6,184 nucleotides of DNA from a virus (IMGVR_UViG_2713896791_000023), one strand, 5' to 3'. Shown: positions 2,269 through 6,184, counted from the stretch's first letter. Numbers and translations are program-made. The notes: generated by a model not told the origin, from the letters alone.

Positions 2269-2520
2269 TCAGTTGATTGATGTACGGCGCATTTTTCGAA
2301 GGCTGGCAATATGCTTTTCCTTCTCAATTTCCGCTTTAATCATATGCAGTTCGTTGTGCTCGATTCGCTCAAATTCTTCATTAAATGCACCAATTGAAGT
2401 GGCTCTGGTTCTGCCGTCGAGCCTTCGGTAGATCACCTGAGTCAGAGTTACCTTGCATATTTCTACCGGATAGTTGTTGGCATCAACGAAAGACTGCCCG
2501 CGCTGGATCAGGACGAACAC
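2269..2520 (-). CDS. Hypothetical phage protein, 83 aa, GTG start.
   Basis: ORF with GTG start at 2520..2518 and an AAGGAA RBS 8 nt upstream. Its stop is immediately followed by the intrinsic terminator. It overlaps the 3' end of the upstream ORF by 13 nt. I recognise no family. Confidence 0.45.
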   Translation of the reverse strand: MFVLIQRGQSFVDANNYPVEICKVTLTQVIYRRLDGRTRATSIGAFNEEFERIEHNELHMIKAEIEKEKHIASLRKMRRTSIN

Positions 2521-2741
2521 TGGTTGTATTCCTTGAGTGCCATATCATAAACACGGCATGCCGAGAGGTGTGTTGTAGTCAACGTCGTTCGTATCCTGAA
2601 AAGTCCATGTGTTGTGACGGTAACTTCCGGGGCTTTGAGTTTCACTGCATCAACGATATGCTGATGTTTGCGGCTTTCGAATATAGAGCTGGAGATAACC
2701 ACACTTGCTGTTAAACCGTAACTTTCAAATGTGATTTTCAT
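2508..2741 (-). CDS. Hypothetical phage protein, 77 aa (MKITFESYGLTASVV...). It may extend to the GTG at 2888 (126 aa).
   Basis: ATG at 2741..2739 with a GAGGA RBS 7 nt upstream. The same frame stays open up to a GTG that overlaps the stop of the upstream gene (GTGA at 2888..2885), so the longer form cannot be excluded. Confidence 0.5.
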   Translation of the reverse strand: MKITFESYGLTASVVISSSIFESRKHQHIVDAVKLKAPEVTVTTHGLFRIRTTLTTTHLSACRVYDMALKEYNQCSS

Positions 2742-2884
2742 GTCATTATCCTCGCAGTTAGCCGGGCAACAAAAATAAATAATGTTGTTCCTGCGAATAA
2801 CAGGATACCGCCCGTCATTAGAGAAAGGAAAAACAATATTAATGTACGCGGGTTGTTTCTCAAAATATTCTCTCTGTGATTCGC

Positions 2885-3274
2885 TCACTCTGACAATTCG
2901 TTGATCAAGTCACGGTATTTATTCAGTTCTTGCAGCGCCTTACATGCACCCTCCCATCGTTTCTGTTTCCGCCCGGCGCGACGCGCTTCTTTCCGTGATT
3001 TACGTAGCAGGTCACCTATAATGTTGTGCTGCACTGGCTGCACTGGCTGCACTGGCTGCACTGGCTGCACTGGCTGCACTGAGGCGATATTTGGTTTTTT
3101 GTCCACTTCCCTTGCAACTGCCTGCCAGATGCCATTTTTTACAGTTACTACCCCCTGGTTTTTTAACTTCCATAGAGTGTCAATAACGTCATTCAAATCA
3201 ATATTGAGACCTTTAGAAATACTTTCGGCTGATGCTTTTCCTAATTTGTTCAATTCTGTGAGCACTGCGTTCAT
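2885..3274 (-). CDS. Hypothetical protein, 129 aa: N-terminal winged-helix-like domain, a (PVQ)6 repeat linker, and a basic C-terminal tail.
   Basis: ATG at 3274 with an AGGAG RBS 6 nt upstream. The N-terminal ~60 aa (AVLTELNKLGKASAESISKGLNIDLNDVIDTLWKLKNQGVVTVKNGIW) have the pattern of a winged HTH. The central VQPVQPVQPVQPVQPVQ is encoded by a perfect 9-bp tandem repeat. The C-terminus is Arg/Lys-rich. Confidence 0.7.
   Translation of the reverse strand: MNAVLTELNKLGKASAESISKGLNIDLNDVIDTLWKLKNQGVVTVKNGIWQAVAREVDKKPNIASVQPVQPVQPVQPVQPVQHNIIGDLLRKSRKEARRAGRKQKRWEGACKALQELNKYRDLINELSE
3028..3081 (-). repeat. Perfect tandem repeat, 9-bp unit (plus GCTGCACTG, minus CAGTGCAGC) x 6 copies, in frame within the CDS 2885..3274.
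   Basis: Read directly from the sequence: six identical contiguous 9-mers at 3028-3081. Confidence 0.95.
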
Positions 3275-3309
3275 TTTTTTCTCCTGATATTTTAATGTCG
3301 GTGGGGCTG

Positions 3310-3465
3310 TTATACGGTTGGTGAGGTGTCAGCTTCTTCTACCAGCTTTTCCAGTTCATCCAGCTTGCGGGAAAGAATTTCACCAAACAGATGAAGTTCT
3401 GCATCTGCTGTAATCGGGATTGGAACAAATCGTATTCCACTTCTGGCAAGTTGCAGGTTAGCCAC
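3310..3465 (-). CDS. Small hypothetical protein, about 51 aa, GTG start, acidic C-terminus.
   Basis: GTG at 3465..3463 lies 6 nt downstream of a perfect AGGAGG (plus 3472-3477) and just after the stop of the upstream gene. The ORF-track version starting at 3552 overlaps the upstream gene by about 95 nt and has an implausible N-terminus. Confidence 0.4.
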   Translation of the reverse strand: MANLQLARSGIRFVPIPITADAELHLFGEILSRKLDELEKLVEEADTSPTV

Positions 3466-3934
3466 GGTTAACCTCCTGCGGCGGTTCCGGTAGCGGCATC
3501 CAGTGTGTGGCCTGTTCAATACCATTACCATCAATACCATTACCAGGCGCAACCGTTATCTGCCCACGCCGAAAGGTGCTTCCTGTATAGCGTGCGGAGC
3601 ATATTAGCGGTTCTACCAGAGATCTATCGAAATTCACCGAAATAAGCACATTCTGGTTCTTTTCAGGCATTCGCTCACTACAGCTTATCCAACCATCCGG
3701 AGTTACCGTAGAGTTGCCCGACAGCTCGTTCAACTTGTAAGTCTGGCTTACAAGTTCGGCACCATGAAGCATGGCGGCGCGGAGTTTCTGTATCTCCCGT
3801 GCCATTATTGCGTCCTGACGAGGAGTGAACATATCACCTGCAATAATTCTGTTTAGTTCCTCGTCAGTGAACTCATAATTATCAGGAACATTGTGAACCT
3901 CAGCATAAAGAGGCTTTTTGGTAGAAATGGTCAT
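3458..3934 (-). CDS. DUF551-like phage protein, 158 aa.
   Basis: ATG at 3934 overlaps the upstream stop (ATGA). The C-terminal region (WISCSERMPEKNQNVLISV...THWMPLPEPP) matches my recollection of the DUF551 signature. Confidence 0.7.
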   Translation of the reverse strand: MTISTKKPLYAEVHNVPDNYEFTDEELNRIIAGDMFTPRQDAIMAREIQKLRAAMLHGAELVSQTYKLNELSGNSTVTPDGWISCSERMPEKNQNVLISVNFDRSLVEPLICSARYTGSTFRRGQITVAPGNGIDGNGIEQATHWMPLPEPPQEVNRG

Positions 3935-5162: not shown

Positions 5163-5368
5163 TTGTTAATCCTCAAAACTTTATGCCCGGGCGCAAAAGC
5201 ACGCGTTTTGTCTTTGCTTATTCGCCAGCCATCCTTGCGCGCCTCTTTTGCACAGCCAGCCCATGACGTACCTATATACTCACCGAAGTCTGGCGACTTA
5301 TATTTGCCATCTGTACACTGGAGGCAATCACAATAGAGATGCATGGTGTAACTTGCAGCAATAGCCAT
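5159..5368 (-). CDS. Small Cys-rich protein, 69 aa (MAIAASYTMHLYCDCLQCTDGKYKSPDFGEY...).
   Basis: ATG at 5368 is preceded by the same 17-nt AAAGGAGAGTGATATGG context as the zinc-ribbon gene at 4717. It has a CxCxxC cluster plus a further Cys. Its stop overlaps the start of 'B'. Confidence 0.55.
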   Translation of the reverse strand: MAIAASYTMHLYCDCLQCTDGKYKSPDFGEYIGTSWAGCAKEARKDGWRISKDKTRAFAPGHKVLRINK

Positions 5369-5369
5369 A

Positions 5370-5475
5370 TCACTCTCCTTTAGTGCGCAAGTGGTTTTTC
5401 CAGCGGTTTTGCTCCGCGCTGGGCTTTTTGCAAAAACCACAATCCATCATCCCGTAATATTTCATCAACCCCATC
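5370..5475 (-). CDS. C-terminal fragment of an ORF emerging from gap 2; frame unresolved. It ends either ...NRWKNHLRTKGE* (stop 5372..5370) or ...KPLEKPLAH* (stop 5382..5380).
   Basis: Two frames are open up to the gap. The frame ending TKGE* mirrors the end of gene 'B' (...QGKGE*) inside the repeated 17-mer and contains a CGFC motif. The ORF-track frame is the one that stays in register with the ORF on the other side of the gap. Confidence 0.25.
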
Positions 5476-5525
5476 NNNNNNNNNNNNNNNNNNNNNNNNN
5501 NNNNNNNNNNNNNNNNNNNNNNNNN
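5476..5525. other. Run of 50 N: unresolved or masked sequence.
   Basis: Read directly from the sequence. Confidence 0.99.
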
Positions 5526-5712
5526 GAGCGTTTCTACGAACTAACAGAATCTTTGCTTTACGGTTTTTCATCGTTTTGCTCTCCTGCATCTCTTTGCTGC
5601 TCGTCGTGCCGCTGCAATACCGGTATGGCGGCGCTTTGGTGTCGGGATGATGTTCTTTGCAATTAGCGCAGAAGCCCAAAAACGAGTCGGATACGGTAAC
5701 AAGCCGATACAT
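5526..5712 (-). CDS. N-terminal part of a hypothetical ORF running into gap 2 (MYRLVTVSDSFLGFCANCKEHHPDTKAPPYRYCSG...MKNRKAKILLVRRNA...). A 51-aa ORF in another frame (5568..5723) is the alternative model.
   Basis: ATG at 5712 lies 8 nt after the upstream stop and the frame is open into the N-run, with CxxC and HH motifs. The nearest strong RBS (AGGAGG, plus 5730-5735) is spaced better for the ATG at 5723 in the other frame. Confidence 0.3.
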
Positions 5713-5722
5713 GCCACACGCA

Positions 5723-6184
5723 TTACTCACCTCCTTTGATGCGAATGCCAGCGGCGCGCTCGGCTTCACTTTGTTCCCAAAACCACTTGTGAAGCGCCAT
5801 AAGCTTTTCGTCAATCGGTGCATATTTGCGATTAAAGTAGGCCTGAGCATCTTTCTCAGATTCGTCCGGTAATTCGCCAGGGCCAAACAGTGTGTTATAA
5901 ATCCATGCTAGTCCGCTCTTAGCGTCGCCAGTTGCCTGCCATTCGATAATGGCAGCCTGCATGACCAGAATGTTTTTCCCGATTAATAGGTCCAGTTCTT
6001 TGTACCGGTTGCGGATGTATGCATTCTCGCTTTGTAATTTTGCGTTGCGCTTTTCTGAGGCTTCAAGTAACGCCTGCTTATCGCGTAGAGCTTCTTCCAG
6101 TTCAGCAACATGGCATTCACTATCAATAAGGTTGTTCTCTGCTGCTTCAAGCTCAACACGCAGCTTCCCAACCGTAAGCGCAAT
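5723..6184 (-). CDS. Partial CDS (5' end beyond the window): coiled-coil N-terminal region plus a C-terminal domain, possibly ead/Ea22-like.
   Basis: The minus-strand frame is open from the window edge to TAA at 5725..5723. The first ~75 codons are heptad-like (LRVELEAAENNLIDSECHVAELEEALRDKQALLEASEKRNAKLQSENAYIRNRYKELD). The ORF-track 79-aa ORF is only its C-terminal part. The family name is a guess from memory. Confidence 0.65.
   Translation of the reverse strand: MALTVGKLRVELEAAENNLIDSECHVAELEEALRDKQALLEASEKRNAKLQSENAYIRNRYKELDLLIGKNILVMQAAIIEWQATGDAKSGLAWIYNTLFGPGELPDESEKDAQAYFNRKYAPIDEKLMALHKWFWEQSEAERAAGIRIKGGE

Follow-up and report, generated by a model that had tools for sequence, protein, structure and literature searches.

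The 6,184-nt stretch of viral DNA analysed here (the window) carries, from xis to its right-hand edge, a run of closely packed genes, and the question it raises is what kind of region this is and what its products might do. The first-pass annotation had described all ORFs between xis and the edge as co-oriented, and every credible gene is indeed encoded by the minus strand. The block comprises 12 genes (A to K plus an Ea22-like gene; Table 1) and is about 95% coding, and each of the 12 ORFs is intact and has start, Shine–Dalgarno (SD) and stop signals. Shadow ORFs on the plus strand had no family support, save for a probable annotation artefact at 2189-2431.

Setting of the block in its prophage

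Outside two runs of N that change its length, the window shows 100% identity to a stx-negative prophage of the 933W/Φ24B type that sits in wrbA of FWSEC0003, an O45:H2 STEC E. coli. After the block, the annotation of this reference lists orf73-, orf61-, orf63- and orf60a-like genes and next exo-bet-gam-kil-cIII and cI/cro. With the exo-xis region defined as in PMC8614690, the block lies between xis and exo on one strand with the pL operon, and the reference contains the gene set of such a region (DUF1317, DUF1382, an orf61-like gene, TraR/DksA and Ead/Ea22), of which the block is the variable part. The suggestion that it is equivalent to lambda's and Stx phages' exo-xis region is therefore borne out by gene order in the reference: the block makes up the promoter-distal, variable portion of a pL 'exo-xis' region, a kind already described and in that sense ordinary. 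Its exact arrangement was found in 4 of 5426 complete E. coli genomes, and a search for the same combination at >=80% coverage found no phage record. Gam is encoded in the same operon, and genes for Lar restriction alleviation and superinfection exclusion lie elsewhere in the prophage.

Both 50-N runs fail to preserve length relative to the reference; that at 4796-4845 adds 57 bases, and that at 5476-5525 takes the place of 37 bases with a shift of frame, so that genes H and J are not correctly readable from the window alone.

Table 1. Features of the block and its flanks (positions in the window)
Feature	Position	Strand	Description
Intrinsic terminator	2244..2267	-	7-bp GC-rich stem, UUCG loop, U-tract; terminator scan
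Gene A	2269..2520	-	83 aa, GTG start, DUF4222; = Φ24B vb_24B_1c
Gene B	2508..2741	-	77 aa, ATG start, GAGGA SD; phrog_1001
Spacer between C and B	2742..2884	-	143 nt, AT-rich; 93% conserved in divergent relative
Gene C	2885..3274	-	129 aa, DUF1627; = Φ24B Gp05 (vb_24B_3c)
Gene D	3310..3465	-	51 aa from GTG 3465, AGGAGG SD; PGAP: 3310-3525
Gene E	3458..3934	-	158 aa, shuffled EaA-type; DUF551 1.6e-21, phrog_31417
Gene F	3931..4509	-	192 aa, 'Eaa protein' family; phrog_660
Gene G	4520..4717	-	65 aa, four-cysteine CPKC...CPEC, zinc-ribbon-like; phrog_4173
Boundary linker AAAGGAGAGTGATATGG	4714..4730	-	H/G junction; KGE-stop, SD, ATG
Gene H	4719..5162	-	128 aa in reference; split in window by N run 4796-4845
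Gene I	5159..5368	-	69 aa, cysteine-rich; phrog_926 over full length
Same boundary linker AAAGGAGAGTGATATGG	5365..5381	-	J/I junction
Gene J	5370..5571	-	Small basic protein, 62 aa in reference frame; phrog_1380 62/62
Gene K	5568..5723	-	51 aa, arginine-rich; phrog_13831
Ea22 homologue, 3' 60%	5723..6184, beyond edge	-	257 aa in full, 933W-type; PGAP CDS

Gene content

Every ORF belongs to a catalogued phage family, and the function of almost all of these families is unassigned: PHROGs gives 'unknown function' for all ORFs, and Pfam yields DUFs and Ead_Ea22 only. The outcome that the first-pass annotation had named as refuting it, database searches placing most ORFs in well-characterized families, was thus not seen: no ORF falls in such a family. 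Its picture of unrecognized ground was overstated: A to D are homologues of Φ24B genes and I, J, K and Ea22 of 933W genes, and work on Gp05, Ea22, Orf63 and RgdR relatives has been published. No ORF matched a PADLOC defence-system model (C gave sub-threshold HTH-type hits and H one weak PglZ hit), no RNA family matched and, Orf63 excepted, no ORF matched a solved structure.

Gene A, 98.8% identical to its Φ24B counterpart, matches Pfam DUF4222 (2.2e-15; residues 4-53 against model positions 2-52), as does the type III secretion (T3S) regulator RgdR (2.1e-23; residues 17-68 against 2-53). An hhalign comparison of gene A with the RgdR beta-core gave E = 2.7e-5 with R-G aligned in register, and pairwise BLASTP was not significant (E = 0.71, 9/27 identities). 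At the position of the RGD tripeptide gene A has R7-G8-Q9, an RGQ that the A-type subfamily conserves. An assignment as orthologue of RgdR (ECs1581) was rejected on the BLASTP result, the original paper having >77% over 99 aa for orthologues; the profile alignment points instead to distant homology with the core of RgdR. A phmmer search with gene A returned 20 representative clusters, all but one of 43-104 aa and aligned from A residue 1, and the AF2 model (pLDDT 75.6) shows a small beta-domain and a long helix; gene A is predicted to be an RgdR-like small beta-barrel co-regulator. The terminator starts 1 nt past its stop codon, upstream of xis, and folds as RNA with -16.6 kcal/mol (z = -1.96); the primer used to clone the Φ24B exo-xis region (PMC10789677) corresponds to the hairpin at 2256-2270 apart from one base.

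Gene B matches the last 77 residues of Φ24B vb_24B_2c and belongs to a narrow family of 8 clusters whose divergent members have 76-77 aa. A GTGA had been proposed as a stop/start overlap at 2885-2888. The tetranucleotide is present, but its GTG is not a conserved start, and a relative of 91% identity has a TAA three codons further on. The long gene B frame from this GTG was rejected: it is broken in the relative L008, and divergent homologues have the 77-aa form. The start of B is therefore placed at ATG 2741, which leaves the 143-nt spacer. Within the spacer lie promoter-like hexamers, TTGAGA-16-TAATAT, both kept in L008; promoter-like sites numbered 6 against a shuffled expectation of 6.8, which is not above chance, the RNA fold of the spacer gave z = -0.67, and a 41-aa TM-like ORF at 2738-2863 had no family match. 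With a strong terminator before xis and these hexamers before B-A, part of the block could be transcribed independently.

The product of gene C is 97% identical to Φ24B Gp05 and shares the Gp05/DUF1627 architecture, with a predicted N-terminal winged-HTH-like domain (weak TrmB/Csa3/CasR HTH matches accompany Pfam DUF1627), a PVQ repeat (9 bp x 5 at 3028-3081; 5 to 10 copies in relatives) and a basic coiled coil. Gp05 has been modelled (PMC8614690), and the gene C product is predicted, from remote homology and models as for gene A, to be a dimeric wHTH DNA binder. Gene D matches Pfam DUF1382 (1.4e-16) and, from residue 25, PDB 8DSB (9e-6). Its N-terminus has been swapped for the 3' end of a DUF551 gene, with the recombination joint at CAACTTGCC, and the native N-terminal segment of its type is present in the phi315 and L008 copies; by its sequence, gene D is an N-terminally replaced Orf63/DUF1382 paralogue.

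Judged by their module composition, E to H are reshuffled EaA/Ea22-type modular proteins (E, F and H) and a zinc-ribbon-like protein (G). Gene E joins an N-terminal module in common with H19J orf588 (tblastn) through a linker to a C-terminal DUF551 domain, and contains a 15-nt tandem duplication at 3516-3545. Gene F has exchangeable N-terminal cassettes with conserved linkers and a nearly invariant C-domain (residues 82-192; alignment A1); it has 4479 homologues, and its AF2 model is poor. Gene H is a paralogue of the F N-terminal modules with another C-terminus, ending ...QGKGE before the stop, and in P0099 the H N-terminus is fused to the F C-domain (alignment A1). Searches with gene G gave weak zinc-motif matches only and no PDB relative. 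E and H are both marked partial by PGAP and the N-terminus of D is replaced, so some cassettes may be non-functional.

Towards the edge, gene I corresponds to the C-terminal 69 residues of 933W ST933Wp08 (97% identical); in its long GTG form the phrog_926 match is confined to residues 25-93. Gene J, split in the window by the second N run, is conserved down to 40% identity. Gene K is without annotation in the reference genome and in 933W RefSeq, and its frame is nonetheless conserved; in TL-2011c and typing phage 10 a 21-nt insertion leaves it open and breaks the alternative frame. An ORF at 5723-5962 and another at the right edge had been considered as separate genes, which we reject in favour of a single 257-aa Ea22 homologue leaving the window. 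It matches Pfam Ead_Ea22 (2.6e-35, residues 2-138), is 99% identical to 933W ST933Wp09 and belongs to variant V1; a comparison with the C-terminal domain of lambda Ea22 gave no match.

Junctions and boundary linkers

Eight of the 11 junctions in the block overlap or sit 1 nt apart, and the non-coding total is about 190 nt, in gaps of 143, 35, 10, 1 and 1 nt. Four of the six stop/start overlaps in the first-pass annotation are exact: ATGA at 3931-3934, 5159-5162 and 5568-5571 (the last kept in divergent phages) and TAATG at 5723-5725. At 4717-4721 the supposed TAATG overlap is TGA-T-ATG, with a 1-nt spacer, and the sixth is the GTGA discussed above. That list lacked the overlaps of B with A (13 nt) and of E with D (8 nt, GTG 3465), as well as the J/I junction, which reads TGAtATG.

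The tight junctions at the same time serve as conserved boundary linkers, about 40 nt in length, between dozens of unrelated cassettes. A 17-mer within them occurs in two exact copies in the window (0 expected) and in at least 120 viral contigs, where the flanking genes are of at least 26 types upstream and at least 19 downstream and pair in more than 50 combinations. Conservation around it is limited to about -20 to +1; what recurs at the boundaries between unrelated, variously combined genes is a short sequence. Because it takes in the final codons (…GIRIKGE or …KGE) as well as stop, SD and start, the linker doubles as a translational-coupling signal. At the linkers cassettes are swapped through homologous recombination, which accounts for the block being at once mosaic and uniformly coupled.

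Function and comparison with known systems

Our working hypothesis, which we hold with considerable confidence, is that the block is a mosaic exo-xis accessory region of a wrbA 933W/Φ24B-type prophage, made up of delayed-early, coupled cassettes that bias the lysis-lysogeny decision. It comprises a Φ24B-type set by xis (A-D), a 933W-type set (I, J, K and Ea22 V1) and E-H between them. From synteny alone we infer pL/N control. If lambda biology applies, the block would be silent in the lysogen under CI repression; upon induction or infection, N-antiterminated RNA polymerase would run from pL through exo and ea22 into the block, making it delayed-early, translation would be coupled through the overlapping or 1-nt-spaced stop/start signals, and transcripts without antitermination would end at the intrinsic terminator just before xis. 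By analogy with Φ24B and lambda, the products are probably small regulators that the phage can do without and that bias both host physiology and the choice between lysis and lysogeny, with D and Ea22 predicted, from their family relationships, to be members of the pro-lytic Orf63 and the pro-lysogenic Ea22 families, respectively.

That much of the block is evolutionary debris, scars and fragments with little current function in a decaying stx-negative prophage, is unlikely. The PGAP-partial E and H, the fusion in E, the lost native N-terminus of D and the rarity of the exact arrangement fit such decay, as do the missing stx and the partial methyltransferase, NinE and tail-fibre genes of the prophage; however, every one of the 12 ORFs is intact, A-D and I-K show 97-100% conservation among many functional Stx phages, the J and K frames survive indels, the F-family C-domain is almost invariant among thousands of proteins, and shuffled modular proteins are the norm in the Ea22/EaA families (PMC10834534). 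It is rather less likely that anti-defence or superinfection functions, and not lysis-lysogeny modulators, are what the block or part of its cassettes encodes. Early, small, highly variable and fast-shuffled genes are a typical counter-defence signature, the prophage encodes Gam, Lar and superinfection exclusion, and a reported fusion partner of DUF551 is a MazZ pyrophosphohydrolase, an inhibitor of host restriction (PMC10834534), but the Φ24B data favour regulatory and metabolic phenotypes, and neither PADLOC, whose models represent defence proteins, nor the solved structures other than Orf63 yielded a match.

We regard as more doubtful still the idea that B and A form a moron-like unit, expressed in the lysogen from a sigma-70 promoter of its own in the 143-nt spacer and closed by a factor-independent terminator of its own, in which A tunes LEE T3S and motility like RgdR. 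The RgdR domain is present in gene A in the same register, the host is a STEC of type O45:H2, and the RgdR family is entirely prophage-borne and acts on T3S and motility (PMC3378721); the clear terminator after A and the conserved spacer hexamers would suit such a unit. Against it, the hexamer count shows no excess over chance, the pairwise similarity is insignificant, RGQ replaces RGD, the C-terminal halves are unrelated, and gene A lies in a lambdoid pL operon whereas RgdR lies in a P4/PICI-like island. The two proteins, of 83 and 99 aa, do share a Pfam domain at the same model positions, and both are prophage-borne; RgdR activates LEE1 and T3S and represses motility, and its RGD is important for activity (PMC3378721).

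The exo-xis regions of lambda, Φ24B and 933W, studied by the Wegrzyn and Donaldson laboratories, have the same position between xis and exo on the same pL strand, and, as here, variable small ORFs after a conserved orf60a-orf63-orf61-orf73-ea22 block; the 'variable set of downstream genes' has already been described (PMC8614690). Genes of this region are transcribed early from pL and affect lysogenization and induction in lambda and Φ24B (PMC10789677, PMC8614690). Deletion and over-expression of the whole block, as proposed in the first-pass annotation, have in fact been published for Φ24B (PMC10789677) with constructs that span the A-D homologues; the phenotypes are those of the whole region and are not attributable to A-D specifically. 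A-D are 97-100% identical to Φ24B vb_24B_1c-4c, and E-K are absent from that phage; I, J, K and Ea22 are 97-100% identical to 933W. Both phages lack the E N-terminus, F, G and H, and lambda ea8.5 and orf55 are missing from the block.

Among individual genes, C shares with Φ24B Gp05 the predicted wHTH, PVQ repeat and coiled coil, with 5 PVQ units in C against 6 in Gp05. D shares the core of lambda Orf63 (DUF1382; PDB 8DSB) and is a second copy beside the canonical orf63 next to exo, with the Orf63-type N-terminus replaced and about 51 aa left; structures and phenotypes are available for the Ea22 and Orf63 families (PMC10834534, PMC10869804). The 'portable' DUF551 domain of Ea22 V2/EaA recurs in gene E, in a mosaic domain layout as described in PMC10834534, and gene F is named 'Eaa protein', after the P22 EaA family, by some sources. 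The Ead_Ea22 signature is missing from E, F and H, which share only N-terminal helical modules and linkers with Ea22/EaA. The linkers of lambdoid phages (Susskind and Botstein 1978; Clark et al. 2001) likewise lie at gene boundaries with unrelated genes on either side, those of this block differing in that they take in the coding end, stop, SD and start, and the linker data presented here fit the boundary-sequence model of those authors (cited in PMC3233612).

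Origin of the element and probable assembly gaps

At its left end the window carries the 3' part of wrbA, followed by a tyrosine integrase, an excisionase and the block of minus-strand genes between xis and the right edge, and outside two runs of 50 Ns it is 100% identical to positions 2112219–2118332 of the chromosome of E. coli O45:H2 strain FWSEC0003 (NZ_CP031916.1), hereafter the reference. Past the block, the reference chromosome carries TraR/DksA (orf73-like), orf61-like, DUF1382 (orf63), DUF1317 (orf60a), exo, bet, gam, kil and cIII genes, then cI/cro/cII/O/P. In the late region (3093–4027 of the reference prophage locus, L007) the Q antiterminator, a partial methyltransferase and tRNA-Ile/Arg/Arg are followed directly by the nanS-p esterase, with no space for stx, and podovirus-type structural genes lie downstream of nanS-p. 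Since stx is absent between the Q/tRNA genes and nanS-p, the prophage is an stx-negative relative of the Stx phages: the element is a 933W/Φ24B-type, stx-negative prophage integrated at wrbA. A second, decayed ea22/orf73/ant cluster is present at its far end (L007 39751–42210). The stop codon of int overlaps the start of the wrbA ORF, the prophage insertion having presumably replaced about the first 14 codons of native WrbA, whose N-terminus differs; the PGAP label is still wrbA. Of 5426 complete E. coli genomes, only 4 have at least 80% of the window in one place. No phage record covers 80% or more of the block, and 460 such records have pieces in common with it.

The flanks of the N run in H overlap by 7 bases on the reference (ACAGCAT on both sides), giving 57 extra window positions, in frame, and those of the run in J lie 37 bases apart on the reference as against 50 Ns, shifting the frame of J. 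Both runs look like fixed-length assembly gaps rather than length-preserving masks. Because they alter length, H and J are unreadable from the window alone and the reference sequence was used for both; the reference frame of J is genuine (phrog_1380 match, 62/62).

Features of the window, with strand and Pfam assignment
Feature	Position	Strand	Pfam	Description
wrbA 3' part	1–579	-
int	576–1910			tyrosine integrase
Plus-strand ORF	2189–2431	+		80 aa, Cys/Ser/Leu-rich; phrog_31437 full length, E = 1e-55
A	2269–2520	-	DUF4222
B	2508–2741	-
Spacer	2742–2884			143 nt
C	2885–3274	-	DUF1627
Repeat in C	3028–3081			9-bp in-frame tandem repeat
D	3310–3465	-	DUF1382
DUF551-end/GTG junction	3455–3490
E	3458–3934	-	DUF551
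Duplication in E	3516–3545			perfect 15-nt tandem duplication
F	3931–4509	-
37-nt direct repeat	4490–4526, 5143–5179			84% identical copies
G	4520–4717	-
17-mer linker	4714–4730 (H/G), 5365–5381 (J/I)
H	4719–5162	-
N run in H	4796–4845			50 Ns
I	5159–5368	-
J	5370–5571	-
N run in J	5476–5525			50 Ns
K	5568–5723	-
Edge gene	5723 to window edge	-	Ead_Ea22

Gene models and junctions

Twelve minus-strand genes cover positions 2269–6184, leaving some 190 nt of non-coding sequence in total. The ATGA overlaps reported by the first-pass annotation at 3931–3934, 5159–5162 and 5568–5571 are all present, as is the TAATG at 5723–5725. At 4717–4721 the sequence reads TGA-T-ATG, with a 1-nt spacer in place of the overlap it had described. 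Its GTGA at 2885–2888 had to be abandoned as a start: the GTG is not conserved, a relative locus about 91% identical (L008) has a TAA three codons on, and divergent B homologues are 76–77 aa long. From these short homologues and the TAA in L008, B starts at ATG 2741 behind a GAGGA Shine–Dalgarno (SD) sequence, leaving the 143-nt spacer. The 126-aa form of B from GTG 2888 was rejected because its frame is interrupted in L008, and a 41-aa transmembrane ORF (2738–2863) was set aside, having no family match. The spacer is 93% conserved; in neither open frame do its 10 substitutions favour third positions, its RNA structure is not unusual (fold z = -0.67), and an Rfam scan gave no RNA element there or elsewhere at E up to 1.

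The start of D is most likely GTG 3465, behind AGGAGG and overlapping the stop of E by 8 nt. When the D copies of the window and Φ24B are compared with those of phi315 and L008, homology starts exactly at CAACTTGCC; upstream of this point phi315 and L008 encode a D N-terminus of their own, whereas the window has the 3' end of a DUF551 gene. This DUF551-end/GTG junction also occurs in 933W, ahead of a different gene. I is placed at ATG 5368, since the longer GTG form is matched by phrog_926 only over residues 25–93. A single 109-aa CxxC...CxxC gene across J and K, as in the phi315 annotation and tblastn matches, was rejected on account of TL-2011c and typing phage 10, where a 21-nt insertion brings a stop into that frame and leaves K open at 58 aa; the copy at 40% identity, the most divergent one, is homologous over J only, which also argues against the long form. 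The J and K frames are both kept in divergent phages, K has no CDS in the RefSeq annotation of FWSEC0003, and neither is annotated in 933W RefSeq (between ST933Wp08 and p09). In both TL-2011c and typing phage 10, J-like genes are also arranged in tandem (L005 3766–4103).

Two apparent ORFs at the right edge are one 257-aa Ea22 homologue running past the window. Of the shadow ORFs on the plus strand, only ORF 2189–2431 is supported by a family match; it spans the xis start, the terminator hairpin and the antisense of A, and is most likely an annotation artefact that has been propagated. A canonical intrinsic terminator lies 1 nt past the stop of A.

Families, cassettes and boundary linkers

Every ORF matches a PHROG family and all these families are labelled as of unknown function, in line with the earlier statement that no protein here was recognised as a characterised factor; the parts are nevertheless catalogued. 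Pfam gave no match for B, F, G, H, I, J or K, and a relaxed scan of these ORFs returned noise only. In tblastn, identity is 97–100% between A, B, C and D and vb_24B_1c–4c of Φ24B, and again 97–100% between 933W and xis, I, J, K and the Ea22 homologue. None of Φ24B, 933W and phi315 has the E N-terminus, F or G, and among these three H has a counterpart in phi315 only, at 47% identity. The DUF551 domain of E is 83% identical to 933W gp05. PDB sequence searches with A, E, F, G, I and Ea22 found nothing, and D matched only lambda Orf63 (NMR structure 8DSB). The edge gene is a 933W-type Ea22; 933W carries Ea22 variants V1 and V2, with DUF551 on V2 (PMC10834534).

The F family comprises about 4,500 proteins, named Eaa protein by some sources; the AF2 model of F (pLDDT 52.8) was too poor for fold searching. 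Members of this family hardly vary over the C-terminal 110 residues, and over the N-terminal 80 they carry exchangeable cassettes bordered by IALASLEAEP and YAAPPAP. H has identical linkers, and one database protein joins the N-terminus of H to the C-domain of F. E is likewise composite, with the N-terminus of H19J orf588, a pre-DUF551 linker and DUF551, within which the tandem duplication (TCAATACCATTACCA twice) encodes GNGID-GNGIE.

The 17-mer AAAGGAGAGTGATATGG occurs twice in the window where no copy is expected, and encodes ...KGE, a stop, an SD sequence, a 1-nt spacer and ATG. Copies were likewise found in 933W, phi315, TL-2011c and another Stx2a phage; viral contigs that carry it number at least 120 (L014–L133). 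In the 119 usable occurrences among the matches listed, the 17-mer links upstream C-termini of at least 26 unrelated kinds with downstream N-termini of at least 19 unrelated kinds, in over 50 different pairings; a tail ...AAGIRIKGE, which the window Ea22 also has, closes many of these upstream proteins. Conservation extends about 20 nt upstream and is then lost. Boundary sequences at the module joints of lambdoid phages are attributed to Susskind & Botstein (1978) and Clark et al. (2001), as cited in PMC3233612, and the pattern at AAAGGAGAGTGATATGG is classical boundary-sequence mosaicism of this kind. As the linkers carry stop, SD and start together, the dense 'coupling' of the block is partly a by-product of shared recombination linkers. 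The 37-nt repeat, which holds the SD and start of the paralogues F (MTTFTKE..) and H (MTTITKE..), is a second shared junction type, and the DUF551-end/GTG junction a third.

Likely role of the block and comparison with related systems

The exo-xis region affects the silent versus induced state of Stx-type prophages, and hence toxin release. By analogy with lambda and Φ24B, the genes of the block would be silent under CI and, after induction or infection, transcribed as delayed-early genes by N-modified polymerase from pL; their ORFs would be translationally coupled, and their products may jointly modulate the lysis–lysogeny decision and host physiology. An anti-defence role, which the first-pass annotation had also raised, is conceivable but not supported; PADLOC and NCBIfam gave nothing meaningful across the block. 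Partial decay of D, E and H is plausible, but for most ORFs conservation contradicts it. B and A might alternatively form a moron-like unit with RgdR-like action in the lysogen, and the terminator past A is clear, but promoter evidence did not rise above chance. Position, orientation, junctions, the terminator past A, family memberships and the mosaic are shown by the sequence data. The block is a known kind of region built from catalogued parts, with nothing to surprise a specialist; the first-pass observation was largely correct and its interpretation broadly right.

RgdR (ECs1581) is a DUF4222 regulator on a cryptic prophage/PICI that acts positively on LEE1 and type III secretion and negatively on motility (PMC3378721, PMC10877973, PMC6092414). 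Pairwise similarity between A and RgdR (sequence from the Sakai genome) is insignificant, and a shallow profile, A2, was uninformative (Neff 1.3). Both proteins cover the same positions of the Pfam DUF4222 model, and with a profile built on diverse A-type sequences, A 6–52 aligns to RgdR 19–67 (E = 2.7e-5), QRGQ lying over MRGD; these two results together indicate that A is a distant homologue of the RgdR core. A has RGQ where RgdR has RGD, its C-terminal helix is unrelated and its genomic context is different. The AF2 model of A (pLDDT 75.6) has four strands, then a long helix, and fold searches gave weak, generic matches to SH3/Tudor/KOW-like barrels only, including RNA-polymerase-interacting CarD and the UvrD C-terminus. 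CarD, Mfd and UvrD have Tudor-like domains that interact with RNA polymerase, and the modelled likeness of A to these barrels is a hint only. It is possible but improbable that A represents a lambdoid-phage branch of RgdR, acting on the transcription machinery through an SH3/Tudor-like barrel and helix, and that its expression from pL on induction, or from a spacer promoter in the lysogen, ties LEE type III secretion and motility of non-O157 STEC to the state of the prophage.

The counterpart of C in Φ24B, the predicted protein Gp05, has been modelled as a wHTH (winged helix–turn–helix) domain, a repeat of PVQ and a coiled coil (Donaldson; PMC8614690), and our profile scans gave independent weak wHTH matches for C. 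The tandem repeat encoding PVQ has 5 copies here, 6 in Φ24B and phi315, and 8 and 10 in two E. coli loci; a change of copy number in this VNTR-like linker would alter the spacing of wHTH and coiled coil. Literature searches by RefSeq protein accessions or Φ24B locus tags returned only Donaldson 2021, on vb_24B_3c.

The block is thus a reassortment of catalogued cassettes, and the analysis mainly saves effort: it revises where B and D start, accepts K as a real gene and establishes what the edge gene is, and it singles out A, C and the invariant C-domain of F for single-gene work. Only A, C and the boundary-linker statistics are leads, and modest ones; the linkers provide a concrete, quantifiable case of cassette exchange mediated by boundary sequences, a concept that is not new but may interest researchers in phage evolution. 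The block-level deletion and over-expression proposed by the first-pass annotation are already published for the sister phage Φ24B and cover four of these cassettes. The forward primer of the Φ24B cloning agrees with the hairpin at 2256–2270 in all but one base, so the Φ24B constructs include the homologues of A–D. Deletion of the whole exo-xis region of Φ24B raised cI/cII expression, changed several hundred host transcripts and lowered amino-acid pools (PMC10789677).
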